Shown here one piece after another: positions 1 to 64,000 of a DNA stretch of 64,000 bases. The stretch spans positions 1-64,000 of the forward strand of contig CAVYSE010000014.1 in NCBI GenBank assembly GCA_963771075.1. The letters run 5' to 3'. The translations under genes were made by a program, and so were the position numbers. The DNA is from a candidate division FCPU426 bacterium (GTDB lineage: Bacteria > Oederibacteriota > Muellerivitia > Muellerivitales > Muellerivitaceae). A model generated the notes under the pieces. The model was not told the DNA's origin. It did not search any database and worked only from the letters and a program-made list of their open reading frames with translations. Each line of letters begins with the position of its first letter. Within the stretch, counting starts at the first letter, position 1.

Positions 1-1935
1 CCCCGGATAGCTGTTCACCGACACACGGATCGATACCGATTGCTGCGGAGGATAAAACAGGTTCTTGTCCACGAAAAAGCCCGTCGGATAGGGCGTCCCC
101 GTCACCGTCGCCGTCAGCGTCGGCGCGGGAGTCAGCGTATTAATCGAAGTGGCCGTTAAGGTGAGGGTGAAGGTCGCCGTCAAGGTCACTGTTGAGGTCC
201 CGGTGGGCGTAAAGGTCGGGGTGGGGCTATGGGTGGGTGTCGGGGTCAGGGTATAGGTTCGGGTGGCGGTGGAGGTGGGGGTCACTGTGGGCGTGAAGGT
301 AAAGGTCGCGGTGGCCGTGGAGGTCGGCGTCGAGGTGGAAGTGAAGCTCCAGGTGGGAGTGAAAGTGGCCGTCGCGGTGGGTGTCGGGGTGGATGTTTTC
401 GTGAGGGTCGGGGTATTCGTGACGGTCTCGGTCATGGTAATCGTCGGGGTGAATCGGAAAGTCTCGGTGTTCGTGAAGGTGATGGTCTGGGTCTGGGTCG
501 CCGTGGCCGTCGAAGTGAGGGTCGAAGTCGATGTATTCGTCTGTGTAGGCGTACTCGTGAGGGTAGGTGTATTCGTCAGGGTGAAAGTCGTCGTTTCCGT
601 AAGCGTATTCGTGGATGTATAGGTCACGGTCGCGGTGGGCGTCGCGGTCGCCGTCGGCGTCAGGGTCGGGCTGACCGTAACGGTGGGCGAGAAGAGGGGC
701 GTGAGCGTCCAGGTCGGCGTAATCGTGACGGTCAAGGTGTATTGGGAGGTATTGGTGCGGGTCGGGGTCACCGTCGGGGTATTCGTCGTCGTGGCCGTAT
801 TGGAGGAGGTGAGGGTCCATGTTGCCGTGGGGCTGTTGGTCGACGTCAAGGTCGGGGTCACGGTGTAGGTTTGGGTGCGGGTCAGGGTGTTCGTCACGGT
901 TAAGGTTACCGTCGGGGTGGGGCTGTTGGTGATGGTGGGCGTCAGCAAGAACGTTTGGGTCCAGGTCGGGGTGAGGGTAACCGTCGGGGTGACCGTTACA
1001 GTCACCGTGACGGTTGGGGTACGGGTCAAGGTCGGGGTCGTACTCGGCGTTGGGGTCGTTGTGTGGGTCAGGGTGAAGGTATTCGTGTTCGTTACCGTCG
1101 CTGTGGGACTGTTGGTCGACGTCAGGGTCGGGGTTACGGTATAGGTTTGGGTGCGGGTCAGCGTATTCGTCACGGTTAAAGTTACCGTCGAGGTGGGACT
1201 AAGGGTAATGGTGGGAGTGAGGACGAAAGTTTGGGTCCAGGTCGTCGTGAGGGTGATGGTCGGGGTGACGGTAACCGTCGAAGTGACGGTCGAAGTGACC
1301 GTGACGGTCGGGGTGCGGGTCAAGGTGTTCGTGCTCGTACCGGTGCTTGTGTTGGTATTGGTCAAGGTCGCCGTGGAGGTGAGGGTGTTGGTTCGGGTCA
1401 GGGTCAGGGTGGGGGTAGCGGTGGAAGTATAGGTCTGGGTAAGCGTTGTCGTGGGGGTATGGGTGGGGGTGGTCGTGGGGGTGACCGTATAAGTATTGGT
1501 GGATGTGACGGTATTGGTCTTGGTCATGGTCTGCGTCGGGGTTAAGGTGCCGGTCGCGGTATTGGTGGACGTTAAGGTTTGAGTCGCCGTAGGCGTGGCC
1601 GTGCTGGTGTTGGTCCGGGTAACCGTCAAGGTTGGCGTGGAGCTGTTGGTCGAGGTCTGGGTTGTCGTCACGGTAGGCGTTGAAGTCGCGGTGGAAGTCC
1701 GGGTCGGTGTCAGGGTCGGGGTGGTCGTCGGGGTCACGGTAGGCGTTGAGGTCGCAGTGGAAGTCCGGGTCGGGGTGGTCGTCGGGGTCACGGTCGGGGT
1801 ATTCGTGGTGGTGACGGTATTGGTCCGGGTTGGGGTTTGGGTCGGGCTGGGAGTGGAGGTAAGGGTATTGGTCGCGGACGGTGTCGGGGTCAAGGTGAGG
1901 GTTCGGGTGGGCGTCAGGGTCGGGCTAGGTGTGGG
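1..1935. repeat. Copy A of a ~1.9 kb near-identical direct repeat (stalk + CTD); partner 6382-8265
   Basis: Base-for-base match at offset 6381 with scattered SNPs and about 48 extra bp near 1740-1790. The ORF track gives identical spurious ORFs at 227-820 and 6608-7201. Confidence 0.95.
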
Positions 1936-6180: not shown

Positions 6181-9100
6181 TTAACGGAGCAGCAAGACCT
6201 TGGCCAAGTGTCTTTCGTAGGGCTCGGTGAGATAGATGATGTAGACACCGCTCGCGCAAATTTCCCCGTAGTCGTTCTTCCCGTCCCAGGGGTATGTGTT
6301 CGTGTTGGGGCTTCCATAGTCCAGTTTCGTCAGGTTCCTCACCACTTCCCCCGCCGTGTTGTAGATCCTCACCGTGTATTCCCCCGGATAGCTGTTCACC
6401 GACACACGGATCGATACCGATTGCTGCGGAGGATAAAACAGGTTCTTGTCCACGAAAAAGCCCGTCGGATAGGGCGTCCCCGTCACCGTCGCCGTCAGCG
6501 TCGGCGCGGGAGTCAGCGTATTAATCGAAGTGACCGTTAAGGTGAGGGTGAAGGTCGCCGTCAAGGTCACTGTTGAGGTCCCGGTGGGCGTAAAGGTCGG
6601 GGTGGGGCTATGGGTGGGTGTCGGGGTCAGGGTATAGGTTCGGGTGGCGGTGGAGGTGGGGGTCACTGTGGGCGTGAAGGTAAAGGTCGCGGTGGCCGTG
6701 GAGGTCGGCGTCGAGGTGGAAGTGAAGCTCCAGGTGGGAGTGAAAGTGGCCGTCGCGGTGGGTGTCGGGGTGGATGTTTTCGTGAGGGTCGGGGTATTCG
6801 TGACGGTCTCGGTCATGGTAATCGTCGGGGTGAATCGGAAAGTCTCGGTGTTCGTGAAGGTGATGGTCTGGGTCTGGGTCGCCGTGGCCGTCGAAGTGAG
6901 GGTCGAAGTCGATGTATTCGTCTGTGTAGGCGTACTCGTGAGGGTAGGTGTATTCGTCAGGGTGAAAGTCGTCGTTTCCGTAAGCGTATTCGTGGATGTA
7001 AAGGTCACGGTCGCGGTGGGCGTCGCGGTCGCCGTCGGCGTCAGGGTCGGGCTGACCGTAACGGTGGGCGAGAAGAGGGGCGTGAGCGTCCAGGTCGGCG
7101 TAATCGTGACGGTCAAGGTGTATTGGGAGGTATTGGTGCGGGTCGGGGTCACCGTCGGGGTATTCGTCGTCGTGGCCGTATTGGAGGAGGTGAGGGTCCA
7201 TGTTGCCGTGGGGCTGTTGGTCGACGTCAAGGTCGGGGTCACGGTGTAGGTTTGGGTTCGGGTCAGGGTGTTCGTCACGGTTAAGGTTACCGTCGGGGTG
7301 GGGCTGTTGGTGATGGTGGGCGTCAGCAAGAACGTTTGGGTCCAGGTCGGGGTGAGGGTGATCGTCGGGGTGACCGTTACAGTCACCGTGACGGTTGGGG
7401 TACGGGTCAAGGTCGGGGTCGTACTCGGCGTTGGGGTCGTTGTGTGGGTCAGGGTATAGGTATTCGTGTTCGTCACCGTCGCTGTGGGACTGTTGGTCGA
7501 CGTCAGGGTCGGGGTCACGGTATAGGTTTGGGTGCGGGTCAGCGTATTTGTCACGGTTAAAGTTACCGTCGGGGTGGGACTAAGGGTGATGGTGGGAGTG
7601 AGGACGAAAGTTTGGGTCCAGGTCGTCGTGAGGGTGATGGTCGGGGTGACGGTAACCGTCGAAGTGACGGTCGAAGTGACCGTGACGGTCGGGGTGCGGG
7701 TCAAGGTGTTCGTGCTCGTACCGGTGCTTGTGTTGGTATTGGTCAAGGTCGCCGTGGAGGTGAGGGTGTTGGTTCGGGTCAGGGTCAGGGTGGGGGTAGC
7801 GGTGGAAGTATAGGTCTGGGTAAGCGTTGTCGTGGGGGTATGGGTGGGGGTGGTCGTGGGGGTGACCGTATAAGTATTGGTGGATGTGACGGTATTGGTC
7901 TTGGTCATGGTCTGCGTCGGGGTTAAGGTGCCGGTCGCGGTATTGGTGGACGTTAAGGTTTGAGTCGCCGTAGGCGTGGCCGTGCTGGTGTTGGTCCGGG
8001 TAACCGTCAAGGTTGGCGTGGAGCTGTTGGTCGAGGTCTGGGTCGTCGTCACGGTAGGCGTTGAGGTCGCGGTGGAAGTCCGGGTCGGGGTCAGGGTCGG
8101 GGTGGTCGTCGGGGTCACGGACGGGGTATTGGTGGCGGTGACGGTATTGGTCCGGCTCGGGGTTTGGGTCGGGCTGGGAGTGGAGGTAAGGGTATTGGTC
8201 GCGGACGGTGTCGGGGTCAAGGTGGGGGTTCGGGTGGGCGTCAGGGTCGGACTAGGCGTGGGGGTTTGGGTGGGGGTAAGGGTCCGGGTAAAGGTTGGGG
8301 TAATCCCAACCGTGCTTACGATAACCACCGTTGCGGATGCGCTTTTAGGGGAATCGATTGGAGACTGAATAGAAGTAGTATTCGTCACTGGCCAGGGATA
8401 GGACGACTGGGCATTGGCCGTAACCCAATAGGTCATTGTCACCGAAGAGCCCGATAGCATATCGGGAATTTGCAATGTCAAATTAGGGGATGTAAAGGTT
8501 GCCCCTGCGGGGGCCGTCCCCACAAAGCCTCCCCAAGTAAACGCGCTCGGGATAGCATCGGTCACCGCAACGTTGGGGATATCCCTGCCTGGCACGGGGC
8601 CATTTCCGAAAATACGCCTCCAAGTGTAACCATCCCATTCTTCCACCAAAACTTGGGTATAAATCGTAGCGGAGGTTTGAGTCCCATAGGGATCGAATAG
8701 GTTTACCGGCACGCTGGTGCCGTCCCCCGCTGTCCAATCGGGGGATACGGGTAAGGGATACATATTCGGGTTCGTTCCCGAGGGACCATAGCCCGCACCT
8801 TGCCAGGACCAAGCCTTGTTGGCTCCTCCGTTGGCCCAAAGATTGGTGGGGTCCGTTTGATTGGCCGCAGGCCAGACGTCGAATGAAAAGATGGGAACAT
8901 TTGAACTGAGATCCCCATACTGCATGTTCAAGCCCGTATTACCGCTATACTTTTGGATGTACCAGAGATTGGGTATTCCCGCCGTATTCCCATAAACCAG
9001 GTTGGGCACCAGGGGGTTGGGACACTGGGTGTCAAACCACCGTACCACATACCTTTGGTTCCATGCCCCATTCGCGTCGGAACCGGGTGTCACCGGGAGT

Positions 9101-9213
9101 TCGGTCAAGGAGTCGTTAACGCCGTTATACATGGGAATCTGGGGTATCTGGAAATCGGCCATGGTCCGGCCCGTGGTGGACCCGTAAGTGTTTGAATTAT
9201 GGGTGGCCATCAA
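6181..9213 (-). CDS. C-terminal part of split GH8 gene 2: CBM3-like insert/DUF11 end, Thr-X stalk, FlgD-Ig/CTD tail
   Basis: [25 protein letters not shown] matches the interior of gene 1 ([25 protein letters not shown]). No signal peptide. Tail WDGKND..ASGVY..KVLLLR. Confidence 0.85.
6382..8265. repeat. Copy B of the ~1.9 kb stalk + CTD repeat
   Basis: Direct comparison with 1-1935. Confidence 0.95.
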
Positions 9214-11699
9214 AAGATAAGTCTGCTGGCCAAGAGCCCCCCCGGGGTTCCATAAACCGGATCATAGAAAAAGAATGACCAACGGTAATTGGTCGGGTTG
9301 ATCAAGGGCTCAAAGGCTTCCGACCGCAATTGGGTATAGAAACGCATGGGACCATATCCAGGGCTCAAGTCACAGCTGAACCCCGGATAAACTTTTGGGC
9401 GACCCCCATTGATCCAAAACCCAGCACCGCTTTGATTGGACGCCACCACGGTGAAGGTCACAGGGCTCCCGGGGGCGACCGTGGTGGGATTGGCCGCCTT
9501 GGTGATCGTCAAGGCGCGGGAGGCGATATCCACGCAATTGCGTTTGAAAACCATCGAGTCTTCGTTGGGATATTGGTTGGTGGTCCAATGGAGTGAACTT
9601 CCCACGTAGATTTGGGCGGTATTGCAGATACGCTCTGTTGCCGCCGCCGAGTTGACCGTAACCACGAGCGTCACCGCGCCTTCCGTGGAGGAAAGGTTGG
9701 TGTTTCCAGGCGTATTGTGCAACCCCGGCACCGTGCCAAGATTCCAAACCACCGTCCCGTTGCTTCCCACTGCGGGAGCGCTCGAGGGAGTCGTCGTGGA
9801 TGAAAGATAAAAAAGATCGGAGGGCAGATGGTCCACGATGGAGACGGGGTTGGCGTCGGCAGCGCCGTAGTTGCGGTATGAAAGGACATAGGTCAGGGTG
9901 TCACCCGCGTAAGCGAAGGTCTTGTTGACCGACTTATAAACTTTCAGGTTCGGTTGGGCGGTCATTTCACAGGGGCTGTGGAAATTTCCTGTCAGGGTGA
10001 TCTCTCCCAGCCAGCGGAAGAATGCGTGGAAATACGCCGGTTGGAAGGCGGCTCCGTCCGAACCGGGGTTGTTCATGTCCCAAACCAGGAAGTTTTCCCT
10101 GTAAAGTTCGTCCATCACCTCAAATTGCTGGGCGGCTGTCAGGCTAGAGGAACCGCAAACCGCCACCGAGGTAGGCCCCAATACCGTCGGGATATGGAAA
10201 TTGGTCATTCCTCCGGCCTGGGTCATATCGCTGAGAACTTGTGAAATCCCCCAAAAGGTGAGCCCATAACCCGAGCCGGGAACCGAATAGGGATTGCCCG
10301 CCGTTGTGGGGTTATACATGAGACTTGAATAGGCGTTCACGAAATTTTGTTCCGCCGTATCGGTACCCGCGATCACGGCCATGTTGACAGGGTCCCAGGT
10401 ATTGGCCGGGGTCCCATACCATAAATAGCTCAAACCGGTGCGATAGGGAGTACGAATTCCCTCCGCCGCACCACTGACATTCCAAGTCGCCCCGTTGAGG
10501 CTCACCACTCCCGCCGCATTGGCCTGGATGCCGTCCGTCCCGATGGAATAGGGCGGCCTTTGGGTGTTCATCTGGCTTATCAGATATTCGCTTGAGCAGG
10601 CAGCCCGCATGAATTGGCTAGCCGCCAGGGTATCTCCGCCCGCATCCGTGATCACTTGGCTGAAACAACGGTAATAGCCCGGGGCGAGGTAGCTGGTGCA
10701 AACACCGGTGCAATTGGCCACCCCGGTGGTACTGCAATAACCGCTCAAGGCGGGATAGGTTCCGTGGGCGGTAGTCCCCCACCCCGTCATATCCCCGTTC
10801 GTATTGCATGGTTTTAAATAACCATCCATACCGATGAGCGCGGAATCATAAGCGACTCCCGGCCCAGGGAACCCGGGGTCCTTCACCCAATCAGCGAAGG
10901 CGCTGGCGTAGCGGAAAAATTCATCCCCATAATTGATGTTTGTTCCCGAGGCGGTTTGATATCCGGAGAAATTTCCCCATTGTTTATAGGCGATCAAAAG
11001 GGCCATGAGGATATCCTCGTCCCCATCGGTGGCGGCGTCACCGGGTGCCGTACCCGACATGCCGGTGGCCAAGCCCGGGGTCTTGCAAGTACCCATATAA
11101 CCCGTAAATTGAGTCGTTGGCGCGGCGATTTCATAACTCAAGACCCCCGGGATGGAGCTGTGGATATCAATCCACAACCCGTCGAAGGTGTCCTTATCGG
11201 CCATAACCGCCGCCATCAAAAGCGCGTAACCTTCCCCCTCCGAACACCAACCGGTTGTTCCCTCGCACGCGTTGAAGTTTAAACGGTTAGGTAAAGCCGC
11301 GGGTTTCCATCCGCCCTTATTCACCAACCGATGCATACCTTCCACATAGATTTGAATGAGTGCCTTTTCCATCTCCGCATGGGGCACTCCATCCGGATTT
11401 TGCGTGGCCAAAGACTTTCCGTAGAGGTATTCCTTGAATTGCGGAAAAGGCCAGACGGGGGATTGGGGCATCACTGCGCCTTGATTGATATTCGCGGCCG
11501 AGACTGGAAAAGTAGCTCCCAATCGCAAAGGGATAAAAAGGCAAATCAAAATGAATAGGAGATGGATATAAATCGGTCGATGATGAAAAGCGCTTTCTCG
11601 TCTAGACAAAAAAACCCCCGGGTGAATTTTTACCCTTGATTGCGAAATAAAAAAGTAAAACAAGTTTGTAAAAACCTGCAAAATATAAACCAAAATCAT
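9210..11699 (-). CDS. N-terminal part of split GH8 gene 2 (GH8 + DUF11); likely true start TTG 11609; frameshifted at G7 tract 9237-9243
   Basis: [45 protein letters not shown] and [12 protein letters not shown]11 [26 protein letters not shown]. Ends inside a domain that is continuous in gene 1. Confidence 0.85.
11677..11693 (-). promoter_or_regulatory. sigma54 -24/-12 promoter of GH8 gene 2
   Basis: TTGGTTTATATTTTGCA = GG-N10-GC. It lies downstream of ATG 11699, which supports TTG 11609 as the start. Confidence 0.6.
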
Positions 11700-11966: not shown

Positions 11967-14207
11967 TCAGTGTCTCTTTATATATTTTTTTCTTCCGAGA
12001 TAAGTTCTATTTTCAATTCTTGAGGTTAAAGAAGGTGAAGGCCTTTTCATCCGCCAACCCGCGATACCCATTCCAAATATAGTTCCAAAGATCAAAGAAA
12101 TAAATATTCCAATTCGAACCGAGACCGGCTCATAGCGGAAGATAATCTTGTGCGCCCCCGCATTCGGGATCAAGGCTGTCATCCAATATCCGTAGGCGCG
12201 AAAAATCGCCTCGGGTTTTCCGTCACACCAGGCTCTCCATCCTGGCGCGAAACTTTCGTCAAATACCATGTAGCCGGGGCGGGGAGTATTGATTACGAAC
12301 ACCCCCTGAGCCGGACTGACCCTTGTGATCTGAATTTCCGGTTGGAGGTCAAACCATTTTCCAGCGAGTTCCCTGAACCATCCCATCGCCCGGTCCCACA
12401 AGGCCAAATCGGAACCCGTTTCCAAGCTTTCCATGGGCGGGGGGAGACGAACCGCCTTTCCGTCCGGCGCCTTTTCCGTAAAAACCTGATTTTCCAAAAA
12501 AGCCCTTGGGTCCAACAGGGCTTGGAATACGGAAGCCCGATCCGGAAATTCCCTGACCTGATCCGCTTCCCAACCGGCCGGCATAGCGCCCGCGTTTTGG
12601 ATGTCATAAACCGGCCCCTGGGGAAACGACAACTTGTATTTGAACGCCGGAAGCCTGTCCGGAAGAACAAACACTTTCGACCCCGCCGCGTCAAATACCC
12701 TGCCGTCAAATGGGTAGCCTTTTTCCATGTAACTTTTTAAATTCTGATACCCATCAATGTAAATGGAAAGATATCCCGCCACTGAGGGTATTCCCCAAAT
12801 GACTTGGGTGTTGGGCCGGAAGGTCATGGACGTCTCAAGAAAGGAACTCCCGAAGTCATGAACATTAGGCGAATAAAGACTTCGTTGATTGCGCAGGGCT
12901 AGGATCCTACCCCCATTCGCCAGATTCTTGACCCCCTCTGCGGCCTGTGCCACCTGTGGATTGCGATAAGGGTCGGGGACCAGATGTAAAACCCGGTAAG
13001 GTACGCCGAGAACGTCCACCATCCAAAGGAACCCCATAGCCCAAATGAACCCATTTCGGCGAAAAAGGATTTTCTCTTTCGAAATGGATTCGCCACGGGT
13101 TTTGGGACTCCTCGAAAACATATCAATATTGGTTTTACCTACCGCGGTAAGAGCGGAAAAAACAAAAAGAAATGCCGCCTTGGTCGGTTCAAATATTTCA
13201 AACAACCTCTGGGGCAACAGTTTCAACGGCGGGAAATAAACACCCGCCATCCAAACCACCACAACCAGGGCGGAAAGGTTCCAAAACCTCTCGACGCCCT
13301 TCGCGCCAAACCGAAAACCCCAAAGAAATAAAACCAGCGGTACGCAACCCAAATAAAGGTTTCCAAAAATGAAATTGGGATAATCCCCCCAATATCCCTG
13401 GGTCCCCGGAATACCCAGAAAATTCGGAGAGAATAGGGTGAGCAGATTGACCCAACGAAGGCAATAGACCGGGTCCTGCCACCCTTCCCGGCGAAGGTAT
13501 CCCAGAAAATCGGCAAAAGGAAGCCACTGGGAACAGGTTAATGCCAACCCAGCGACTAAAGCGAAGAACATATAAAGGGCGGCTTTCCAGCCCGGCTTTT
13601 CTTTTACGAGCCAGAGGGACAAAAATAAGGTTGTGTACAAGGTGAAATAGGGATAACCCGCTAATAGCTGGAGACTCCAACAGATCACCATCACACCCCA
13701 ATGGGTAAGGCGTGGTTCTTTCAAGTATCGCCGGCAGGCCCAAAACACCCAGGGCACCCAGGCATAAGCCGCCATATGGGTGGGAAAGCCCCAGTACAGC
13801 ACCGCCATAGCGGAAGCGCCGTAGCTGATCGCGCACAATACCGATAGAAGGGGGGAGGATTGATTTTCCTTCATCCAAAAATAAAACCCGAGGAAAGCCC
13901 AAAGGGAATGGACCAGGGGAAGAATAAAAAACCAATCCGAAAGACCCGTTACACACCAAATCCAAAAGGGAGGGTAAAAAACCGCGGATTGAAAGTTCGC
14001 CAGATGCGGTTGTCCACAGGCCACATTGGAATTCCAAAGGGGCAAAAACCCCTTACGAAAAATTTCCACGTTGAACCATTTTTCAGGGAAAACATATTCC
14101 AGGGTGTCGGCAAAGGCGGGAAAGTGCCCCACAAAACGGAAAGCCCAAACAACAAGGCTCGAAATAAAAATGGCCCCAATCGCCCGGGTCAAATATTTGT
14201 TTTTCAT
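11967..14207 (-). CDS. YfhO-like polytopic membrane protein (GT-C fold glycosyltransferase candidate)
   Basis: N-terminal D..Y.FP..LPLWN...GQPHLANFQSAVFYPP, many TM helices, C-terminal ESFAPGWRAWCDGK..GAHKIIFRYEP. Confidence 0.85.
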   Translation of the reverse strand: MKNKYLTRAIGAIFISSLVVWAFRFVGHFPAFADTLEYVFPEKWFNVEIFRKGFLPLWNSNVACGQPHLANFQSAVFYPPFWIWCVTGLSDWFFILPLVHSLWAFLGFYFWMKENQSSPLLSVLCAISYGASAMAVLYWGFPTHMAAYAWVPWVFWACRRYLKEPRLTHWGVMVICWSLQLLAGYPYFTLYTTLFLSLWLVKEKPGWKAALYMFFALVAGLALTCSQWLPFADFLGYLRREGWQDPVYCLRWVNLLTLFSPNFLGIPGTQGYWGDYPNFIFGNLYLGCVPLVLFLWGFRFGAKGVERFWNLSALVVVVWMAGVYFPPLKLLPQRLFEIFEPTKAAFLFVFSALTAVGKTNIDMFSRSPKTRGESISKEKILFRRNGFIWAMGFLWMVDVLGVPYRVLHLVPDPYRNPQVAQAAEGVKNLANGGRILALRNQRSLYSPNVHDFGSSFLETSMTFRPNTQVIWGIPSVAGYLSIYIDGYQNLKSYMEKGYPFDGRVFDAAGSKVFVLPDRLPAFKYKLSFPQGPVYDIQNAGAMPAGWEADQVREFPDRASVFQALLDPRAFLENQVFTEKAPDGKAVRLPPPMESLETGSDLALWDRAMGWFRELAGKWFDLQPEIQITRVSPAQGVFVINTPRPGYMVFDESFAPGWRAWCDGKPEAIFRAYGYWMTALIPNAGAHKIIFRYEPVSVRIGIFISLIFGTIFGMGIAGWRMKRPSPSLTSRIENRTYLGRKKYIKRH

Positions 14208-44245: not shown

Positions 44246-45622
44246 TCAATGACTCGATGAGACCAGGAACTTTCCCGCCTGGAGAACCTGGTTAGCGGAT
44301 TGAACAGTATAGAAATAGATACCGCTAGAGACGGGTAATCCAAATCGGTTCCTTCCATTCCACTGGGCCAACCCTCCTATTTCGTTAACTCGCTGGACCA
44401 ATTCCCCCGAAACGGTATAGATCGAAACCTGCCCACCTTGAGGTATACAGCTGATTTTGAGGGTTCCGTTATAGGCAAAAACGGGGTTATAGGGGTCGGG
44501 CCAGAGGTTGATCACGCAGGTGGGGGTGGGTGACAAGGTCCAAGTGGGGGATAGGGTGACGGTAAAGGTTTGGGTCGGGGTGTAGGTTTGGGTAGGTGTA
44601 TAGGTTTGGGTGATCGTGGGGGTTTGAGTGGGTGTGCAGGTATCTCCCGGCCAACCACAAGGCGTGGGAGTATAAGTGATGGTGGGTGTTACCGTGGGGG
44701 TACAGGTAAGGCCTCCCCCGCTAAAACATGGAACGGGGGTAACGTTGGATACCGATCCCGAGCTATTCCAGGCCACTTTATCAATGTATCCATAGCAAAA
44801 ATGCCCGCCCCCGTCGCAATCATAAGCCGTATAGTTGATTGTGACTTGCTGTCCGACATAAGCGCTTAAATCATAGGCGAATTGAGTCCAGGGCATATGG
44901 GCATAGGTTATGGGGTAATTACTTGTCTCGGAATATTCTATGACCGTACCGTCATAAATCAAAGTTACGGGATATATGGGTGGGTTAAGGGGAGGAACAT
45001 TGAGCCCGGTCACATTAGGAGGGGGAAAATCCTCATACCAACTAAATGGCTGGGAATAAACAGTTTGGCCTCCCACCTGGATATTGAATTGAACATAAGC
45101 ATCGTATGAAACATCCGGCGAAAGAATAGTTACGCTATACATATAATGGAAACCTTCAATAACCGCCGCGAGATTAACGGTTAAAACTGGTTGGGCGATA
45201 GGAACAGTGTCGGATTGAGAGATGCTAGCCCAATCACCATGATTTATATCCCACCATCCCGAATAAACCTGGGCCGAATAACCTCCTGCATCGACCTCGT
45301 TAAGGCAAATGGTCGCCGGGGACTGGCATAAGCTTGGGTTTCCGAATGAAGTCCCAACGGTATCCGACGCAGCTCCCGGCTGGACGACATTAATAGAAGG
45401 CGGAGATATGCACGAGACACAGTTGGATGCGGTCGTCCAACCCGCTGTATTCCCAGTCTCAAAACCCGCGTTCGTCCAAGCCCACAGGCTCCCGGGCAAG
45501 GCCAACATGAGAAACAATATCCATCCCACCAGCGGGCGAGGCCGGAAAGGCCCAGGCAGGATAGTGAAACAAACCATTGGGAGATTTTCCCTTTTAAGCG
45601 GGGACGGTTTCATTGGCGTCAT
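44246..45622 (-). CDS. Secreted protein (jelly-roll/CBM-like head, short Thr-X linker, CTD tail)
   Basis: Signal ending SLWA; NAGFETGNTAGW; DLSAYVGQQVTI..YGYID; tail LWPDPYNP..IYTVSGELV..SSGIYFY. Confidence 0.8.
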   Translation of the reverse strand: MTPMKPSPLKRENLPMVCFTILPGPFRPRPLVGWILFLMLALPGSLWAWTNAGFETGNTAGWTTASNCVSCISPPSINVVQPGAASDTVGTSFGNPSLCQSPATICLNEVDAGGYSAQVYSGWWDINHGDWASISQSDTVPIAQPVLTVNLAAVIEGFHYMYSVTILSPDVSYDAYVQFNIQVGGQTVYSQPFSWYEDFPPPNVTGLNVPPLNPPIYPVTLIYDGTVIEYSETSNYPITYAHMPWTQFAYDLSAYVGQQVTINYTAYDCDGGGHFCYGYIDKVAWNSSGSVSNVTPVPCFSGGGLTCTPTVTPTITYTPTPCGWPGDTCTPTQTPTITQTYTPTQTYTPTQTFTVTLSPTWTLSPTPTCVINLWPDPYNPVFAYNGTLKISCIPQGGQVSIYTVSGELVQRVNEIGGLAQWNGRNRFGLPVSSGIYFYTVQSANQVLQAGKFLVSSSH

Positions 45623-45711: not shown

Positions 45712-45723
45712 GGACCTAAAACC

Positions 45724-47139: not shown

Positions 47140-47270
47140 ATTGTTTCCTCCTATCGAAATTGAGAGCGTGGGTGGGAAAGCGTGGAAAAGCGTTGATCAT
47201 TGGGACACGAAAACGCGAGCAGTCTACCATTCCGAGTCCATCCCCAACACTCCATTGCGCCGTTATTTAG

Positions 47271-47287
47271 AGCAAAAGTCCTGCCAG
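47271..47287 (-). promoter_or_regulatory. sigma54 -24/-12 promoter of glnA
   Basis: CTGGCAGGACTTTTGCT, close to consensus TGGCAC-N5-TTGCW. Confidence 0.88.
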
Positions 47288-47415
47288 AGTAAGGGGAATC
47301 AACTTTACCGTTTCGTTTATGTTTAAAAAAACACTTTTTCCGTTATTATTTTGTGGGTTTTCATCACTGGCCTTTTAAATAACCACGATGAAAAAAACCT
47401 TAGCGATAGAGAGGT

Positions 47416-58344: not shown

Positions 58345-59362
58345 TCAACGAATGACGAGAAGTTTACCGATTGTCTTGGCGCCGTTGACTGTCACCACCG
58401 CATAGTAAAGACCATTGGCCAGCGGATTCCCTCCCCGGCCCGTCAGGTTGACGTTAACGCTCGTTCCCGAGGGTATGGAATAGAAGGTCTCATCCACTAC
58501 CTTTCGATAATTCACCGTGAAGATCTCCACCCTCACCGTCGAGATTCCCGTGTAACTGGGCGGAAGCACATTTACCGTCGGTCCCGTCACCGGGTTGGGA
58601 TAAAGGATTGGTATCTTCTGGGGTACCGGCGTTTGCGTAAAGGTCGGGGTAATCGTTCTAGTCGTGGTGGCCGAGATCGTCCAGGTGGAGGTCGCGGTCC
58701 ATGTCACCGAGGGGGTCAACGTCGGTGTGGCGGTATAGGTATAGGTGTTGGTAGGTGTGGAGGTTTGGGTGGGCGTGGACGTGGCTTGCTGGCAGTTCAC
58801 GGTGTTGCCCGAAACCGGCAATCCCGTGATCGACACCGGCTGTCCTCCATTATTCGTACTGGTTCCCGTCAACCCACTGACGGAGAAATCATAGGTGCCA
58901 AAGGCGGAGGGTGAGAAGTTCACCAATACCTGTACATTGACCGGCGAAGACGAAACCAGGAAATTACCCAGGCTGAGCGTGGCCGTATTGCCGGTGAACC
59001 CGGAGACGGTAGACTGCAGTATTCCGTTCAAATAAACACTGATGGATGTGACATTCGCCGCGTTGCCGCCCAGGTCGCTGACCGTGATATTCGTGAGGTT
59101 GACACCTAATGCGCTTGGATCGCTGAGGTTCGCGGATACTGCCGTGACACCGGCGGACCCGGAAAGAGTATTGAAGGTGGACGAGGTCGAGCTGATATTC
59201 ACAATGGCCGAGGTGGGCGTAGAGCTGGCAGTTGGGGTCGAACTCGCGGTCGGGGTCGGAGTGGCCGTAGGGGTAACGGTCAGTGTGCTGGTCGGCGGAA
59301 CCGCCGTAAAGGTATGGGTATTAGTGAAAACCGGGGTATAGGAAAGCGTCGGGGTATTCGTC
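58345..59362. repeat. ~1 kb highly similar tail repeat; partner 62257-63274 (offset 3912)
   Basis: Near-identical CTD and flanks with a more diverged patch near 58870-59030. Confidence 0.92.
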
Positions 59363-62022
59363 ATCGTGCTTGTACCGGTGGGGCTCAGGGTGATCGTAAA
59401 GGTGCCGGAGGAAGTGGGTGTGGCAGTGGGAGTGAATGAACTCGTCGAGGTGGGAGTCGCGGTAATCGTGTTGCTGAAGGTAGAGGTAGGAGTATGGGTT
59501 GGCGTTCTTGTGGGGGTTTCCGTCAAGGTTTCCGTCGAGCTATAGGTCAGGGTGGCCGTAGCGGTCGAAGTGACGGTAGCGGTTGAGGTTCCCGTATGCG
59601 TAATGGTGGGTGACAAGGTTTCAGTCGGGGATAAAGTGATCGTGGGGCTCAAGGGGAAAGTCGCCGTCGGTGTTCCGCTTTGAGTTGGCGTTCCGGTCAA
59701 AGTTGACGTCCCGGTATGCGTGGAAGTTGTAGAAGCGGTGAAGGTCAGGGTTTGGGTCGAAGTCGGGGAAGCCGTGGAGGTCAAAGTTCCAGTATGGGTG
59801 GCTGTCTGGGTAAAGGTCGAGGTGCGGGTAAATGTGGCTGTGCTGGAGAAGGTCGGGGATAAGGTTGCCGTTGAGGTTGTAGTGGATGAATAGGTAAACG
59901 TATGGGTTACCGTAGCCGTCGTACTCACAGTGGCTGTTGGAGATAGAGTCACGGTCGGGGACAAGGTGATCGTCGGGCTCAAGGGGAAGGTTGCCGTCGA
60001 GGTTCCGGTTTGGGTCGAGGTTTCCGTGACGGTATAGGTTGGGGTGCTCGTGGGAGTCACGGTGCGGGTGGCTGTGGCAGTGACCGTAAAGGTCGAGGTT
60101 CCCGTAGAGGTACGGGTTGTCGTTGGAGACAAGGTATTCGTCGAAGTTAATGGAAGGGTCGCGGTTGCGGTCACCGAGACAGTGGAGGTCATAGTGGAAG
60201 TGGCCGTACCGTTGGCGGTTCGTGTTGCCGTCGGTGTAGCGGTCAGGGTAGCCGTCGGCGACGAGGAAGATGTTGGCGAGAAGGTCAAAGTAAGGGTGAA
60301 GGGGGATGTGGCGGTGGGTGATCCCGTTACGGTTAGGGTACTGGTCAAGGTCATCGTACGGGTCGAAGTGGATGTCATCGTCGCGGTAGGGGTAGGTGTT
60401 GAGGTCACGGTCGAGGTAAAGGTTCGGGTTAGGGTGGAAGTCGCCGTCAAGGTCGAGGAGGCAGTGGGCGTACTCGTGACCGTCGGGGTCGGGGTTGACG
60501 AATTGGACGGTGTCCAGGTGCGCGTGGCGGTCATTGTCGTAGTGGAAGTAAAGGTGCCGGTGGGGGTCAAGGTAATCGTAACGGTCGGGCTCAAGGTGCG
60601 GGTAGACGTCAAAGTGCTTGTATTGGTGGAAGTAAGGGTTCGCGTTACCGTCATTGTAGTTGTGGGGGTAGGGCTGGATGTATTCGTTATCGTGTTAGTC
60701 TTTGTCGGGGTGAATGTCGGAGTCGGGGTACTTGTGAATGTACGCGTAGGGGTCAAGGTGAAAGTCGGTGTACCACCTCCGCCCGAACAATTGGGCGTGG
60801 GAGTTTGATAAAGATCGTTCAACCAGGTCGAAACCGGAACGCCATGCCCGGAGGAAGGGGCAAAACCTGTATAACTGCTCAAAAGCTGAGGTCCGTCATC
60901 CGGGCTAAAGGCCCAGGCTGTAGCGTTGTAAACATAACTTTTATTATTCGCCCCGTCGAGCCAACCGATGAAGGTGTTATCCCACCCCGTGGTGTCCGTG
61001 CTAGAGGGCGGTCCGAATTCCTCGACGTCAACAGGATATGTTGAAGTGATCACCGTCACGTACGGATCCCAGGTCGTCTCACTCGCGGTTCCCTTGTTAC
61101 TGTAAACATGAGCCGTGTACATGACACCATAACCCGAACCCGTATCGGTCAAATTGTAGGCTGTCGTACTTCCCGTTTCTTGACCCACTACCCCCTTCAA
61201 ATCGTAAGCCCATTGCAGTCCGCCGACCAAACAAATATTATTCGCCCCCGCGTTGCGGACGACTGTCAACAGGCCCTGAAGCCCTGGTGTATAAGCGGGC
61301 GTGGACCCTGTCGAACCACCGTTTCTCCAGGTGGCCCAGAAAGTAGTGTCATTTCCAGCCGGGTCATAGGGTTCGTTGTAAAGGTCGAACATCACTGCGG
61401 GATTATTTTGGATTCCGGACGTACCGGCCACTGCAGCCCAAAATGTTTCGGAATTCATGTCCGGCATGGGCTGTTGGGCCGTCGCGGTTCCCCAACCATT
61501 CCCACTGCTGCAGGAGGCGGTGCTAACAGCACTGCTCGAGGTCCCGGACCAATGAAGGTCCAGGTCCAGGTAGACATTGTTGTTCTCGCAATAATTCGCC
61601 ACCGCCAAGACCATAGCCTGGTATGCCGCCTGGTTTTCGCCTGAAGCCTTGGAATTGCCACAACCGCCGAACCAGAAATCCTGGTTGATCGGAAGGCGCA
61701 CCAGGTTGCAATGCCAAACGTTGACCGCCTCGGTGGTGAGCGCGACGTAATCCGTCATGCTGGTCCCATTAATGGTGGTCGTGGGAGCCCCATCCCCATC
61801 TCCCGTCGGGCTGTATTCCATACCGGAAAAATCGACGCCTTTCAGCCGGATTGAACAACCGCTGCTAGCGTTCACGATTTGATTTCCCGAGACTTTAAGT
61901 TGAGGAGAAGTAGCTTTAAGTGGGTTTCCAAATCCAAAATTAAAATAAAAAAGAATTAAAAATACAAAATTCGCTAAAAACGTTTTAAAAGTAGTTCTCA
62001 TGATGCCCCTGCGGTTATTCAT
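58345..62022 (-). CDS. Secreted GH5 (cellulase-family) enzyme + Thr-X stalk + Ig-like domain + CTD tail (alternative start 62001)
   Basis: LKVSGNQI..LKGV, NLVRLP, LDLH, FDLYNEP (acid/base), AHVY, VEEFG (nucleophile), AWAF; tail LYPNP..LANGLYY..KLLVIR. Confidence 0.92.
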   Translation of the reverse strand: MNNRRGIMRTTFKTFLANFVFLILFYFNFGFGNPLKATSPQLKVSGNQIVNASSGCSIRLKGVDFSGMEYSPTGDGDGAPTTTINGTSMTDYVALTTEAVNVWHCNLVRLPINQDFWFGGCGNSKASGENQAAYQAMVLAVANYCENNNVYLDLDLHWSGTSSSAVSTASCSSGNGWGTATAQQPMPDMNSETFWAAVAGTSGIQNNPAVMFDLYNEPYDPAGNDTTFWATWRNGGSTGSTPAYTPGLQGLLTVVRNAGANNICLVGGLQWAYDLKGVVGQETGSTTAYNLTDTGSGYGVMYTAHVYSNKGTASETTWDPYVTVITSTYPVDVEEFGPPSSTDTTGWDNTFIGWLDGANNKSYVYNATAWAFSPDDGPQLLSSYTGFAPSSGHGVPVSTWLNDLYQTPTPNCSGGGGTPTFTLTPTRTFTSTPTPTFTPTKTNTITNTSSPTPTTTMTVTRTLTSTNTSTLTSTRTLSPTVTITLTPTGTFTSTTTMTATRTWTPSNSSTPTPTVTSTPTASSTLTATSTLTRTFTSTVTSTPTPTATMTSTSTRTMTLTSTLTVTGSPTATSPFTLTLTFSPTSSSSPTATLTATPTATRTANGTATSTMTSTVSVTATATLPLTSTNTLSPTTTRTSTGTSTFTVTATATRTVTPTSTPTYTVTETSTQTGTSTATFPLSPTITLSPTVTLSPTATVSTTATVTHTFTYSSTTTSTATLSPTFSSTATFTRTSTFTQTATHTGTLTSTASPTSTQTLTFTASTTSTHTGTSTLTGTPTQSGTPTATFPLSPTITLSPTETLSPTITHTGTSTATVTSTATATLTYSSTETLTETPTRTPTHTPTSTFSNTITATPTSTSSFTPTATPTSSGTFTITLSPTGTSTMTNTPTLSYTPVFTNTHTFTAVPPTSTLTVTPTATPTPTASSTPTASSTPTSAIVNISSTSSTFNTLSGSAGVTAVSANLSDPSALGVNLTNITVSDLGGNAANVTSISVYLNGILQSTVSGFTGNTATLSLGNFLVSSSPVNVQVLVNFSPSAFGTYDFSVSGLTGTSTNNGGQPVSITGLPVSGNTVNCQQATSTPTQTSTPTNTYTYTATPTLTPSVTWTATSTWTISATTTRTITPTFTQTPVPQKIPILYPNPVTGPTVNVLPPSYTGISTVRVEIFTVNYRKVVDETFYSIPSGTSVNVNLTGRGGNPLANGLYYAVVTVNGAKTIGKLLVIR

Positions 62023-62064
62023 AACTTCAATTATGAGTTTAAAATGTAACTTATCCTATAAAAG

Positions 62065-62256: not shown

Positions 62257-64000
62257 TTAACGAATGACGAGAAGTTTACCGATTGTCTTGGCGCCGTTGA
62301 CTGTCACCACCGCATAGTAAAGACCATTAGCCAGTGGATTCCCTCCCCGGCCCGTCAGGTTGACGTTAACGCTCGTTCCCGAGGGCACCGAATAGAAGGT
62401 CTCATCCACTACCTTTCGATAATTCACCGTGAAGATCTCCACCCTCACCGTCGAGATTCCCGTGTAACTGGGCGGAAGCACATTCACCGTCGGTCCAGTC
62501 ACCGGATTGGGATAAAGGATCGGTATCTTTTGGGGTACCGGCGTTTTCGTAAAGGTCGGGGTGATCGTTCCGGTCGTAGTGGCCGAGATCGTCCAGGTGG
62601 AGGTCGCGGTCCATGTCACCGAGGGGGTCAGCGTCGGTGTGGCGGTATAGGTGTAGGTGTGGGTGGGTGTGGAAGTTTGGGTGGGCGTGAACGTGGCTTG
62701 CTGGCAGTTCACCGTATTGCCTGAAACCGGCAGTCCCGTGATCGACACCGGCTGTCCCCCGTTATTCGTACTGGTTCCCGTCAGGCCGCTAATCGAGAAC
62801 TCATAGGTCCCAACCGCCGTACCCGAGAAGTCCACCAGGACCTGCAGGCTGTTGGAGGTAGACGTGATCAAGTCGTTGTTCAGGCTCAGCGTGGCCGTAT
62901 TGCCGGTGAATCCCGGAACAGAAGCCTGCAGTATTCCATTCAAATAAACACTGATGGATGTGACATTCGCTGCGTTGCCGCCCAGGTCGCTGACCGTGAT
63001 ATTCGTGAGGTTGACCCCTAATGCGCTTGGATCGCTGAGGTTCGCGGATACTGCCGTGACACCGGCGGTTCCCGAAAGAGTACTCAAAGTGGATGTGGAC
63101 GAAGTCATGTTCAGGGTCGCCGAAGTGGGCGTGGAACTGGCGGTTGGGGTCGAACTCGCGGTTTGGGTTGGAGTCGCCGTGGGGGTAATGCTCAGTGTGC
63201 TGGTCGGCGGAACCGCCGTAAAGGTATGGGTATTCGTAAAAACCGGGGTATAGGAAAGCGTCGGGGTATTCGTCACCGAACTTGTGGCGGTGGAACTGTT
63301 GGTCACCGTCCAAGTCGGCGTCCATGTCGACGTAAGGGTCGCTGTCGTCGTGGATGTCATGGTTGAGCTCGAAGTGACCGTGGGGGATGCCGTCACGGTC
63401 GGACTAAAGGGAATCGTGGCCGTCAGCGTTCCGGTTGGGGTGGGTGTTCCCGTGGCCGTATCGGTTGTCGTATAGGTCGACGTCGGGGTACGGGTTGGGG
63501 TCAGGGTGGAGGTCAAAGTAGCCGTCAAGGTTTGAGTCGAGGTATCCGTGGGGGGGTGGGTCTGCGTCGCGGTCGATGAAAGGGTGAGGGTCGGGGTCAA
63601 GGTAATGGTCGGGCTCAGCGGGAAGGTGGATGTGGCTGTTTCCGTAAGGGTGGGAGTGCCCGAGGCCGTCGAGGTAGAAGTCGCGGTTGAAGTCCTCGTG
63701 GAGCTTGCCGTCGTAGTCGGGGTCGTAGACGCCGATGAAGTCGCGGTAAAGGTCGAGGTCGGGGTGATCGTCGTCGTCCAGGTCCTCGTTGAGCTAAAGG
63801 TGTTGGTCTCCGTAGAGGTCAACGTAACCGTTGGCGAAAGCGTATTCGTCGCGCTCAACTGCAAAGTGGCCGTCGCGGTCGGAGTCTGGGTCGGTGTTCC
63901 CGTGGCGGTCGGGCTGGATGTGATCGTATTGGTATGGGTCGAGGTAAGAGTCGGGGTAGAGGTGGTTGTGAAGGTTCGGGTCCATGTCCCGGAGGCGGTG
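62257..64000 (-). CDS. 3' part of another Thr-X stalk + Ig + CTD protein; head lies beyond the window
   Basis: The frame stays open from 63864 to 64000 (TASGTWTRTFTTTSTPT..). Tail nearly identical to that of the GH5 gene. Confidence 0.9.
   Translation of the reverse strand, partial: TASGTWTRTFTTTSTPTLTSTHTNTITSSPTATGTPTQTPTATATLQLSATNTLSPTVTLTSTETNTFSSTRTWTTTITPTSTFTATSSASTTPTTTASSTRTSTATSTSTASGTPTLTETATSTFPLSPTITLTPTLTLSSTATQTHPPTDTSTQTLTATLTSTLTPTRTPTSTYTTTDTATGTPTPTGTLTATIPFSPTVTASPTVTSSSTMTSTTTATLTSTWTPTWTVTNSSTATSSVTNTPTLSYTPVFTNTHTFTAVPPTSTLSITPTATPTQTASSTPTASSTPTSATLNMTSSTSTLSTLSGTAGVTAVSANLSDPSALGVNLTNITVSDLGGNAANVTSISVYLNGILQASVPGFTGNTATLSLNNDLITSTSNSLQVLVDFSGTAVGTYEFSISGLTGTSTNNGGQPVSITGLPVSGNTVNCQQATFTPTQTSTPTHTYTYTATPTLTPSVTWTATSTWTISATTTGTITPTFTKTPVPQKIPILYPNPVTGPTVNVLPPSYTGISTVRVEIFTVNYRKVVDETFYSVPSGTSVNVNLTGRGGNPLANGLYYAVVTVNGAKTIGKLLVIR

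Follow-up and report, generated by a model that had tools for sequence, protein, structure and literature searches.

Predicted type IX-like export of threonine-stalked proteins through a SprA-family translocon and PorV-family barrels in a candidate division FCPU426 bacterium

How does an uncultured soil and bog bacterium, whose nearest relatives by named homologs are FCPU426/Firestonebacteria, put glycan-active proteins outside its outer membrane? The question is raised by the 64,000-nucleotide stretch of DNA analyzed here (the window; Table 1). Gene calls and Pfam scans confirmed the plan first read from the letters alone, in which eight genes share a head, a Thr-rich stalk, and a C-terminal Ig-like tail; the heads are GH8 (twice), expansin, DUF11/lectin-like, NHL, and GH5, and the head that lies beyond position 64000 is also GH5. 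The same scans identified the four GT-C-type genes among them as two YfhO genes, one double Wzy_C-TPR gene, and one PMT_2-like-TPR gene, and the barrel fusion as PorV-FlgD-OmpA-TPR. No cellulosome parts were found, in line with the first reading: a profile search with positive control genomes found dockerin in none of five genomes, the source genome included, and neither cohesin nor SLH was matched when 20 proteins of the window and the heads of 103 cargo proteins were scanned with Pfam. An Rfam scan of the window gave no match.

Table 1. Genes of the display system and their neighbors in the window (CTD, C-terminal domain; stalk positions in parentheses)
Feature	Position	Strand	Basis
CTD cargo: signal peptide, GH8 head, DUF11 domains, 631-aa Thr-X stalk (79-1971); tail lost at contig start	1..5799	-	Pfam GH8 + DUF11
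Second GH8 cargo, 621-aa stalk (6460-8322), CTD	6181..11699	-	Pfam; two ORFs = one gene
YfhO-family GT-C membrane protein, one of 14 paralogs	11967..14207	-	Pfam
CTD cargo: expansin (EXLX1-like) head, 705-aa Pro-rich Thr-X stalk (15558-17672), FlgD-Ig domains, CTD	14286..19700	-	NF041144 E 5e-22, below cut-off; Por_Secre_tail above cut-off
CTD cargo: DUF11/lectin-like head (lead only), 621-aa Asn-rich Thr-X stalk (22656-24518), FlgD-Ig domains, CTD	21399..26015	-	Pfam; Atlas scores 0.81-0.85, leads only
YfhO-family GT-C membrane protein	26230..28434	-	Pfam
Double Wzy_C (O-antigen ligase / O-OTase-like) protein with TPRs	28431..31528	-	Pfam; two ORFs = one gene
PMT_2-like GT-C with TPRs, one of about 26 paralogs	36411..38549	+	PMT_2 22.9 bits, below 26.1 cut-off
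PorV-family barrel + FlgD-Ig + OmpA-type peptidoglycan-binding + TPR domains	38563..40581	-	NF033709 119 bits > 90
CTD cargo: NHL propeller, short stalks; CTD subtype paired with adjacent barrel	40609..44100	-	Pfam, CTD profile
458-aa CTD cargo, 67-aa stalk; CTD subtype as in NHL gene	44246..45622	-	TIGR04183 24 bits > 23
CTD cargo: GH5 head, 534-aa Thr-X stalk (59203-60804), Ig domain, CTD	58345..62022	-	Pfam
Second GH5 cargo, C-terminal part; gene runs on to contig position 66012	62257..64000	-	Pfam

The first GH8 protein has the CelA endoglucanase 1CEM as its best PDB match (E 2e-18), and its stalk is 96% Ser/Thr in one phase. The two GH8 genes are 99.1% identical in their stalk and CTD DNA over 1739 bp behind two different heads, and so the stalk appears to be a swappable module; the last 1036 bp of the second GH5 gene are 89% identical to the adjoining GH5 gene. 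The second GH8 gene and the Wzy_C gene, each called as two ORFs, have each lost one base from a G run. The missing base is present in public contigs, at 9236 in all three covering runs and at 29728 in the single bridging contig, so each is one gene and the frameshifts are assembly errors; programmed frameshifting or phase variation at the two G runs was rejected accordingly. The Wzy_C gene is intact in relatives (about 980-1090 aa).

The tail is not peculiar to the window. Across the genome 112 proteins end in it, although some of these are fragments of genes and a few, short and of FlgD type, are possibly not cargo, and because these genes are spread over the genome the window is better seen as a sample of a genome-wide system than as a special cluster. 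An AF2 model of the tail (pLDDT 95.6) is a seven-strand sandwich that matches best the uncleaved CTDs of PorU (Z 10.6, rmsd 2.1 Å) and PorZ (Z 10.5, rmsd 2.6 Å), followed by the CTDs of FspA, mirolase, NucA, and RgpB; the predicted fold is thus that of a type IX CTD. The Gly of the CTD β3-β4 loop, which is essential (PMC11285876), is invariant in 33 alignment rows. Three large CTD classes (41, 24, and 15 members), to which the GH8, GH5, expansin, and lectin-like cargo of the window belongs, have no barrel gene beside their members, whereas the small, divergent classes lie directly upstream of a barrel gene of their own. The cargo is broader than the cellulose-attacking set that had been envisaged. 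CAZymes and CBMs make up only 25 of the 103 cargo heads in Pfam scans, and the presence of stalks in the phylum does not follow that of GH5: GH5 occurs in 1 of 11 genomes of one stalk-bearing family and in 5 of 5 genomes of a stalk-less one, by which we rejected cellulase-specific stalks.

A translocon is encoded on another contig. TIGR04189, the SprA model, matches there over about 2000 aa (contig C20, 131583-137533); the gene is frameshifted in the source assembly, and the intact ortholog of a close relative scores above the curated cut-off (205.8 > 200). When a profile built from 11 SprA orthologs was run against the PDB, only F. johnsoniae SprA matched (E 3e-38). SprA-like genes are found in 92 of 99 phylum genomes, including 58 of the 60 near-complete ones.

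PorV-family barrels are still more widespread, being present in all 99 phylum genomes, with 22 genes in the source genome; none of three barrels scanned reached the PorV or PorQ equivalog cut-offs, and the window barrel (38563..40581) has 59 near-full-length homologs. A CTD gene lies directly upstream of 13 of the 22 barrels, compared with 38 of 2003 other genes, a 30-fold excess. At the relative loci of the window barrel this upstream CTD gene is kept in 20 of 20 while the heads vary, and a profile made from 29 relatives' CTDs picks out four CTDs in the source genome at 114-118 bits, the next scoring 42. These four of the 112 tails include the two neighbors upstream of the barrel and none of the cellulase tails. 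The barrel is therefore likely to be a dedicated carrier or anchor for its two upstream cargo proteins, and since the cellulase CTDs are of another subtype we do not assign it to the cellulases, whose anchor it had been taken to be. PorP/SprF carriers were above the PF11751 cut-off in none of five genomes, with no control above the cut-off either.

Complex prediction for a CTD with the window barrel gave a score of 0.93, against 0.00 for the best control; runs agreed in at least 96% of contacts, and the partners had a pLDDT of at least 90. The mark applied to this score is reached by 116 of 157 solved pairs and by 2 of 215 mismatched pairs. Because PorV-CTD complexes have already been solved (8GL6, 8GLJ, and 8GLK), the score may stem from likeness to them, and it carries no specificity between paralogs. 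A PDB search with the PorV fusion profile listed matches to OmpA and TPR parts only, the barrel being unmatched by sequence to any solved structure among them.

Together, the SprA-family translocon, the CTD fold, and the predicted barrel-CTD complex support the divergent type IX-like route of the original prediction. We think it probable that the tail proteins are exported over the outer membrane by the SprA-family pore with PorV-family barrels, with no GldLM motor, GldKN hub, or PorU sortase found. Genes, architecture, family matches, and gene pairing are observed here, and the steps that follow are inferred from them. The proteins would first leave the cytoplasm through Sec by their signal peptides, after which the CTD would dock, as in Flavobacterium, on a PorV-family barrel, binding its loops at the lateral gate of SprA. 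Two kinds of address would operate: the large CTD classes would use general carriers, and the small divergent classes would each use the downstream barrel as a private carrier. The window barrel would serve the subtype of its two upstream neighbors and pin that cargo to peptidoglycan by its fused OmpA domain, doing in one chain the job of PorP plus PorE for type B cargo. For want of a sortase the CTD would stay on, and cargo would either remain barrel-bound or be released.

C25, the PorU sortase family, is absent from all 31 genomes of the family and present in 8 of 99 phylum genomes, where the four loci viewed all encode cargo-like proteases; the PorU profile matches only the CTD part of PorU in the source genome. 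The FGE-sulfatase fold of GldK/J, which was found in controls, is missing from two of five near-complete SprA-bearing genomes, both of 99-100% completeness, and the single GldK/J-fold match in the source genome has no T9SS context. Searches for GldM (0 of 99 genomes) and GldL (0 of 5 above cut-off) were run with control genomes that carry neither, and that for GldN (0 of 45) without a positive control; all three profiles were built from Bacteroidota, and a diverged motor could be missed by them. The motor is probably absent.

The motor is required in F. johnsoniae for cargo to be released from the pore (PMC10994853), which speaks against a motor-less version. It is possible, if on the unlikely side, that the same route is driven by an unrecognized energy chain, either diverged GldLM/GldKN or a recruited ExbBD/TonB-type motor, and is a full type IX system in disguise. 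Beyond the energy need and the uncontrolled searches, this reading can point to five MotA/ExbB genes in the genome. One of them shares an operon with two other genes, of which one encodes a TPR protein of 1005 aa that reaches 117 bits on PorW/SprE (cut-off 250) and the other a 650-aa protein with no annotation. However, Bacteroidota-built profiles did find the diverged SprA, PorV, and C25 proteins, and the GldK/J fold is lacking in the two near-complete SprA-bearing genomes just mentioned. One MotA is flagellar, three others adjoin receptor-like or TonB-like genes, and generic repeats of the CpoB type account better for the match of the TPR protein.

In the stalks, over 46,122 residues, the probability of a Thr two positions after a Thr is 0.84, and one position after it 0.05, an alternation far above chance. 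The phase persists (0.77 at lag 20), with 94% of Pro-Pro gaps of up to 30 residues even, and the non-Thr phase holds about a third large hydrophobics, 11% Asn, about 6% charged residues, and 23% Pro at irregular spacing. In the export scheme that we prefer, the stalk would be a swappable spacer, most likely an extended, one-faced, probably O-glycosylated linker that at 620 residues could reach a length of about 200 nm; its best, though unproven, modifier is the PMT-like GT-C family. A different and rather unlikely reading is that the proline-poor stalks, at least, are folded two-sided β-solenoid rods with Thr arrays outside and Val, Ile, Leu, Tyr, and Asn inside, like curli or ice-binding proteins, which would bind cellulose or ice or act as stiff spacers and need no glycosylation. 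The composition of the non-Thr phase and the persistence of phase favor such rods, as does an AF2 model of a stalk with 14-residue repeats (contig C14, gene 75192-84173, residues 700-910), which folds with pLDDT 94.3 (five models, 88.7-94.3); this stalk is the most regular one and lies outside the window. The model resembles SufB/D (Z 18.5, rmsd 2.1 Å, 196 aligned), CsgA (Z 18.1, rmsd 8.5), and the ryegrass ice-binding protein (Z 13.4, rmsd 8.2). Yet Foldseek matched it to nothing at E ≤ 0.001, a higher-order repeat of more than 50% identity is present in only 4 of 64 long stalks, and the irregularly spaced prolines count against a solenoid; AF2 is also reported to yield confident but unrealistic solenoids for perfect repeats (PMC11795689).

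If the stalks are glycosylated, candidate enzymes abound, with about 50 GT-C paralogs in the genome (YfhO, 14; PMT-like, about 26). Phylogenetic profiling decoupled YfhO from the stalks. It occurs in 18 of 18 stalk-less genomes and in 1 of 15 genomes of two stalk-bearing families, and was rejected as the stalk enzyme on this distribution; the YfhO protein at 11967..14207 is thus probably not stalk modifying. A TMEM260-like GT-C, present in all 18 stalk-less genomes, was rejected likewise. Only the PMT-like family co-occurs with stalks, and weakly: its profile is matched in all 81 genomes with stalks and in 1 of the 18 without, a single clade contrast that is sensitive to the threshold (one stalk-less genome lies at 1.4e-8 against 1e-8). 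Co-expansion of PMT-like paralogs with stalk amount within the family was rejected, as a raw rho of 0.65 in rough first-look counts fell to -0.01 once genome size was removed. The PMT-like proteins have an invariant Asp-Glu pair in the first loop, and their profile had no match in the PDB. Glycosylated Thr-Pro linkers have precedent in Caldicellulosiruptor, where a GT39 gene sits beside its cellulase targets (PMC6151902). The PMT-like protein at 36411..38549 is the best, though unproven, candidate for O-glycosylation of the stalks.

The original prediction had gone further and read the window as one display locus of co-located genes: the GT-C enzymes encoded there would glycosylate the stalks, the barrel would anchor the cellulases, and a sigma54 activator would control them. 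We now regard this as quite improbable, its co-location, barrel assignment, and sigma54 parts being already largely refuted. Part of the arrangement is conserved: the family keeps the gene order glnA/nifA - cargo - PorV/OmpA - PMT-like - aroQ - Wzy_C - YfhO as a block, a PMT-like ortholog is beside the barrel at 12 of 20 loci, Wzy_C or YfhO is in the stretch at 16 of 20, and long-stalk cargo is near the YfhO pair in 5 of 8 relatives; the co-occurrence of PMT-like genes with stalks and the Caldicellulosiruptor precedent also count in its favor. But housekeeping aroQ, glnA, and tolC-macAB are equally in the block, the cargo that separates the two YfhO genes in this genome was inserted, together with an IS4 element, in this lineage only, and a GH8 ortholog is nearby in only 1 of 8 relatives. 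Cargo and barrels occur genome-wide, and GT-C genes are no nearer to cargo than other genes are (14 of 40 within 10 kb, against a background of 31.6%). To this are added the distribution of YfhO, the fragility of the PMT-like contrast, and the CTD subtype of the cellulases. Sigma54 sites precede 1 of 107 cargo genes and 24 of 2428 others; the activator sits before glnA, which has a -24/-12 site, and most likely serves that gene.

PorV barrels have a FadL-like transporter fold, sprA adjoins the lipid A genes lpxD/C/A and the LPS transport genes lptFG at all seven loci viewed, and Ig sandwiches are common (362 chains at Z ≥ 5 in the fold search with the tail), but that the SprA-like and PorV-like proteins serve outer-membrane assembly or uptake, with the tails ordinary Ig domains and the enzymes leaving otherwise or staying periplasmic, is very improbable in view of the strictly C-terminal position of 112 of 114 tail matches, top structural matches that are all type IX CTDs, the excess of cargo-barrel gene pairs with conserved CTD subtype, and the predicted barrel-CTD complex.

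To our knowledge, type IX export has been thought confined to Bacteroidota and their kin and dependent on a motor. In the openly available main texts, we found no type IX system described in this lineage or without a motor. A phylum-wide set of SprA, PorV, and CTD lacking motor, hub, and sortase would make both the confinement to a lineage and the need for a motor testable. Extending the export scheme to the whole phylum, which is non-FCB, we propose tentatively, and could well be wrong, that it has a stand-alone outer-membrane half of type IX, in which SprA and 10-60 PorV paralogs read a CTD address code and cargo is kept, some of it wall-tethered, with no gliding motor, hub, or sortase, and that most members add a Thr stalk, whether as a glyco-brush or as a Thr-faced solenoid. 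If so, the stalk would hold enzymes and adhesins up to hundreds of nanometers off the cell, and the translocon-carrier module would be older than, and independent of, the gliding motor of Bacteroidota. The scheme also suggests a mechanism by which FCPU426/Goldbacteria-type cells, lacking cellulosomes, might bring glycanases to bear in soils and peat, and the many CTD-carrier pairs form a natural library in which sorting specificity can be studied.

Among described organisms, the cellulolytic "Ca. Goldbacteria"/FCPU426 of Doud et al. (PMC7031533) likely belong to the same phylum-level group. Those portions of that paper on which we rely describe cells captured bound to cellulose and many GH5, GH8, GH9, and GH44 enzymes; they name no secretion route, tail, or stalk, and mention neither T9SS nor threonine nor linkers. 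Caldicellulosiruptor bescii, in which GT39 Cbes_1864 glycosylates the Thr-Pro linkers of cellulases (PMC6151902), shares cellulosome-free glycanases, alternating-Thr linkers, and a PMT-type GT-C gene nearby. It is, however, a monoderm that secretes through Sec, whereas the present organism is a diderm with predicted CTD export, varied non-Thr residues in its 500- to 2000-residue stalks, and its large set of GT-C paralogs.

The closest relation is to the type A T9SS of Bacteroidota, represented by SprA-PorV-CTD of F. johnsoniae (PDB 6H3I, 8GL6/8GLJ/8GLK; PMC10994853). Common to both are a SprA-family translocon, a PorV-family carrier, a seven-strand C-terminal sorting domain, here nearest to the uncleaved PorU/PorZ type, and cargo that includes CAZymes and proteases. 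The system described here differs in having no PorU sortase, conserved GldK/J, or detectable GldL/M/N, in a SprA of about 1970-2030 aa rather than 2400, in its 22 paralogs of PorV, many of which carry FlgD-Ig, OmpA, or TPR domains as periplasmic fusions, and in a host outside Bacteroidota. With the anchoring of type B CTDs, as in PG1035-PorP-PorE of P. gingivalis and in SprB-SprF of F. johnsoniae with its PorP-like carriers (PMC9143113), it shares a cargo gene beside its own carrier barrel, a CTD that would be kept, and a predicted peptidoglycan link by an OmpA-type domain with TPRs. In contrast to that arrangement, the carriers recognized here are of the PorV family, with no PorP/SprF match above the cut-off in five genomes, the CTDs are type A-like, and barrel and OmpA domain form one polypeptide.

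The window does contain all eight genes with a head, a Thr-X stalk and a C-terminal tail, together with the PorV fusion and the four GT-C genes. Loss of one base in a G run breaks both the second GH8 gene and the Wzy_C gene, and in each case public contigs supply that base (3 of 3 covering runs at the GH8 site, one bridging contig at the Wzy_C site). The cargo head lying beyond the window is a GH5. The GH8 head aligns best with the CelA endoglucanase, which does not fix its substrate because the family also includes chitosanases and xylanases. The original prediction of a co-located display locus gives way to a wider picture, in which the window is a sample of a genome-wide system. An iterated tail profile seeded from six window tails had 114 matches in the genome, 112 of them C-terminal, though a few in this total are gene fragments or short proteins of FlgD type; 90 carry a stalk, and in 58 the stalk has at least 200 residues. 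Thr-rich stretches of at least 30 residues occur in 147 of 3951 ORFs, and these cover 9.7% of the genome. Of 107 listed heads, 103, all outside the window, were scanned with Pfam at 1e-5, giving 25 CAZymes or CBMs (GH5, eight; GH8, GH12, GH16, GH30, GH44 and esterases, two each; GH9, GH28, GH116, PL4 and CBM9, one each), 4 peptidases, 11 propellers, 13 others and 50 without a match. Stalk and CTD have been copied together between genes, with 99.1% identity over 1739 bp behind two GH8 heads.

The genome (4.39 Mb, 28 contigs, 96.7% complete) comes from a lineage that probably lies outside the FCB group, a placement based on named homologs and on one paper. The nearest named RpoB homologs belong to "candidate division FCPU426 bacterium" (65-66%), followed by NC10 (58-59%); for SprA, the closest homolog with a name comes from Ca. 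Firestonebacteria (27%). Doud et al. (PMC7031533) sets FCPU426/Goldbacteria beside Firestonebacteria and Elusimicrobia and credits them with many GH5/8/9/44 enzymes. Soil and bog metagenomes hold DNA near-identical to the window. Type IX genes are described as absent outside FCB in the portion of PMC11285876 available, and the available text of PMC11205867, PMC8542988, PMC4704652 and PMC10434106 has nothing on secretion in this lineage. In the openly accessible main texts searched, we found no description of a type IX system in this lineage, or of one without a motor. The present analysis adds a two-tier CTD address pattern, a phylum-wide stalk profile and a test of what was proposed for GT-C enzymes and for sigma54.

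The system is probably a type IX secretion variant, one in which the motor, hub and sortase typical of such systems were not found. The genome search proposed earlier for sprA, porU and gld genes was borne out for the first of these. The SprA-family gene is frameshifted in this assembly, but 5 of 6 close relatives have it whole, at 1969-2028 aa; an intact ortholog exceeds the TIGR04189 cut-off, and a profile of 11 orthologs searched against the PDB matched only F. johnsoniae SprA. In the loci viewed, sprA always lies downstream of lpxD/C/A and lptFG and upstream of an FN3-type CTD protein. Of 99 genomes of the phylum, 92 have SprA and all 99 have the PorV family, with 22 PorV-family genes in this genome and, per phylum genome, 8 to at least 19-20 scored matches or 10-64 first-look candidates. 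The other expected parts did not appear: C25 peptidase is absent from 31 of 31 family genomes and present in 8 of 99 in the phylum, the four C25 loci viewed encoding cargo-like proteases, and of five near-complete genomes with SprA, two lack the GldK/J fold. Searches run without a positive control gave nothing over cut-off for GldM (0/99), GldN (0/45), GldL (0/5) or PorP/SprF (0/5). No PorU sortase was found in this genome, where the PorU profile finds matches just to the CTD part of the profile itself. Because release from SprA in F. johnsoniae requires the motor, which pulls the carrier-cargo pair from the translocon (PMC10994853 and PMC12635249, as far as their accessible text goes), the main question here is the energy source of export.

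The stalks alternate two phases. Counted across 46,122 residues, the first phase contains 88% Thr and 9% Ser, and the second contains 23% Pro, 11% Asn and 10% Ser, with about one-third large hydrophobics and ~6% charged residues. When genomes were searched at the DNA level for 13 Thr codons in alternation, 81 of the 99 from the phylum matched; the 18 genomes of families f3-f7, where SprA and PorV are present, gave no match. An extended linker is the favored reading for most stalks, and a strong higher period occurs in only 4 of 64 long stalks. The 200-nm stalk length figure assumes ~3.3 Å per residue. A solenoid is possible for Pro-poor stalks: for the genome's most regular stalk, which is not one of the window's, AF2 gave a beta-solenoid with two sides (pLDDT 94), but AF2 is described as over-predicting solenoids for perfect repeats (PMC11795689).

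Sigma54 control of cargo, also proposed earlier, finds no support in the counts, which use the -24/-12 consensus: sites precede 1 of 107 cargo genes versus 24 of 2428 others. The window's activator exceeds the TIGR01817 (NifA) cut-off, and glnA has a -24/-12 site with one mismatch. The activator most likely serves nitrogen assimilation, apparently through glnA rather than nif genes.

The proposed linkage of GT-C genes to cargo was not supported by gene distances: a CTD gene is found no more than 10 kb away for 14 of 40 YfhO or PMT-like genes versus a 31.6% background (p 0.38). The window gene block is kept in the family, with aroQ, glnA and tolC-macAB also part of it; the set of long-stalk genes near the YfhO pair varies by genome, some being present in 5 of 8 relatives and the GH8 ortholog in 1 of 8. 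Profiling against stalks divided the GT-C families. Only the PMT-like family among those compared follows the stalk distribution (81/81 versus 1/18), a split that is one clade contrast, with a stalk-less genome at 1.4e-8 against the 1e-8 threshold; all 18 stalk-less genomes have YfhO, as does 1 of 15 stalk-bearing genomes of families f8-f9. Once genome size is accounted for, the number of PMT-like paralogs shows no relation to stalk amount. PMT-like relatives in other families seem to carry a PA14 domain at the end. About 50 GT-C genes lie in this one 4.4-Mb genome (14 YfhO-like, about 26 PMT-like-TPR, 9 TMEM260-like), and TMEM260-like genes are expanded phylum-wide, with up to 25 matches. Stalk O-glycosylation stays plausible by analogy, because a GT39 enzyme glycosylates cellulase linkers in C. 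bescii (PMC6151902, accessible part).

Features noted in the window and elsewhere in the genome (C, contig, the window being C14:1-64000; L, fetched locus)
Location	Feature	Reading
window 19871-21040	IS4-family transposase between expansin and lectin-like cargo, within the stretch parting two YfhO genes that adjoin each other in most relatives	
window 31796-32317	truncated; C-terminal part of a protein with DnaA-type HTH	presumably akin to REP-associated transposase fragments
window 38563-40581 (-)	PorV-FlgD-OmpA-TPR fusion	
window 40609-44100, 44246-45622	cargo upstream of the fusion	
window 45724-49011	NifA-type GAF-AAA-HTH activator directly upstream of glnA; arrangement conserved in family	
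C14:75192-84173; C7:215730-223945; C26:116496-120911	giant stalks, 1000-2100 residues, near-perfect 14- or 16-residue repeats	
C17:145825-150297, 154603-159075	two near-identical 1490-aa GH5 cargo genes, opposite strands, ~4 kb apart	either inverted duplication or assembly artefact
C20:131583-137533	SprA-family gene	
C20:137497-142116 (L001:10498-15117; also L003-L008)	~1500-1630-aa FN3-repeat-like CTD protein behind sprA, 7/7 loci; no match in NCBIfam scan	candidate core component that might act as plug, chaperone or release factor
C7:185967-193404 (L053:2968-10405)	operon: PorV-FlgD-OmpA, TPR/propeller lipoprotein, TPR protein, 510-aa unannotated barrel-like protein, second PorV; no cargo gene	candidate general-carrier core; resembles PorP-PorE parts
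L135:5541-15654 (C6)	one stretch: OmpA lipoprotein, 1005-aa TPR protein (117 bits on PorW/SprE, under cut-off), unannotated 650-aa protein, ExbB-type gene, TMEM260-like GT-C	possible alternative energy chain
C20:37996; C21:69604; C28:210964; C3:366542	short stalk-less proteins, 218-265 aa: helical N-terminal part, CTD/FlgD-like end	presumably like anti-sigma factors sharing the tail fold

The predicted tail fold is CTD-like, as anticipated: the tail of 40609-44100, the gene next to the window barrel (pLDDT 95.6), best fits the uncleaved PorU and PorZ CTDs, then other type IX CTDs. The predicted complex of barrel residues 33-337 with this CTD scored 0.93 versus 0.00 for the best of three controls. 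Contacts agreed at 96%, and pLDDT was at least 90 in the partners; the mark used is attained by 116 of 157 solved pairs and 2 of 215 mismatched pairs. Because PorV-CTD complexes have already been solved, this model speaks for likeness more than for binding.

A CTD gene lies directly upstream of 13 of 22 barrels versus 38 of 2003 other genes. The window fusion has 59 near-full-length homologs, and in 20 of 20 fetched loci a CTD gene lies directly upstream, its head differing widely in size and kind. A subtype profile from 29 CTDs of those relatives, with window and same-genus rows excluded, gave 114-118 bits for four CTDs in this genome, whereas the next best reached 42; two of the four are the window barrel's neighbors. 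The 13 CTDs beside a barrel are all members of classes no larger than 4, and the three big classes (41, 24 and 15 members) have no barrel neighbor. Barrels without such a link include C7:185967, C7:192469 and C1:153808. The big classes take in the GH8, GH5, expansin and lectin-like cargo of the window, which argues against the barrel as the cellulase anchor; the barrel goes with the CTD subtype of its two neighbors. Of the 22 barrels, OmpA occurs in two, FlgD-Ig in four and a similar TPR in five. The contrast between big and barrel-adjacent CTD classes resembles the split between a general PorV and cognate PorP/SprF, and the OmpA-TPR portion fused to the window barrel has its likeness in PorE (compare PMC9143113).
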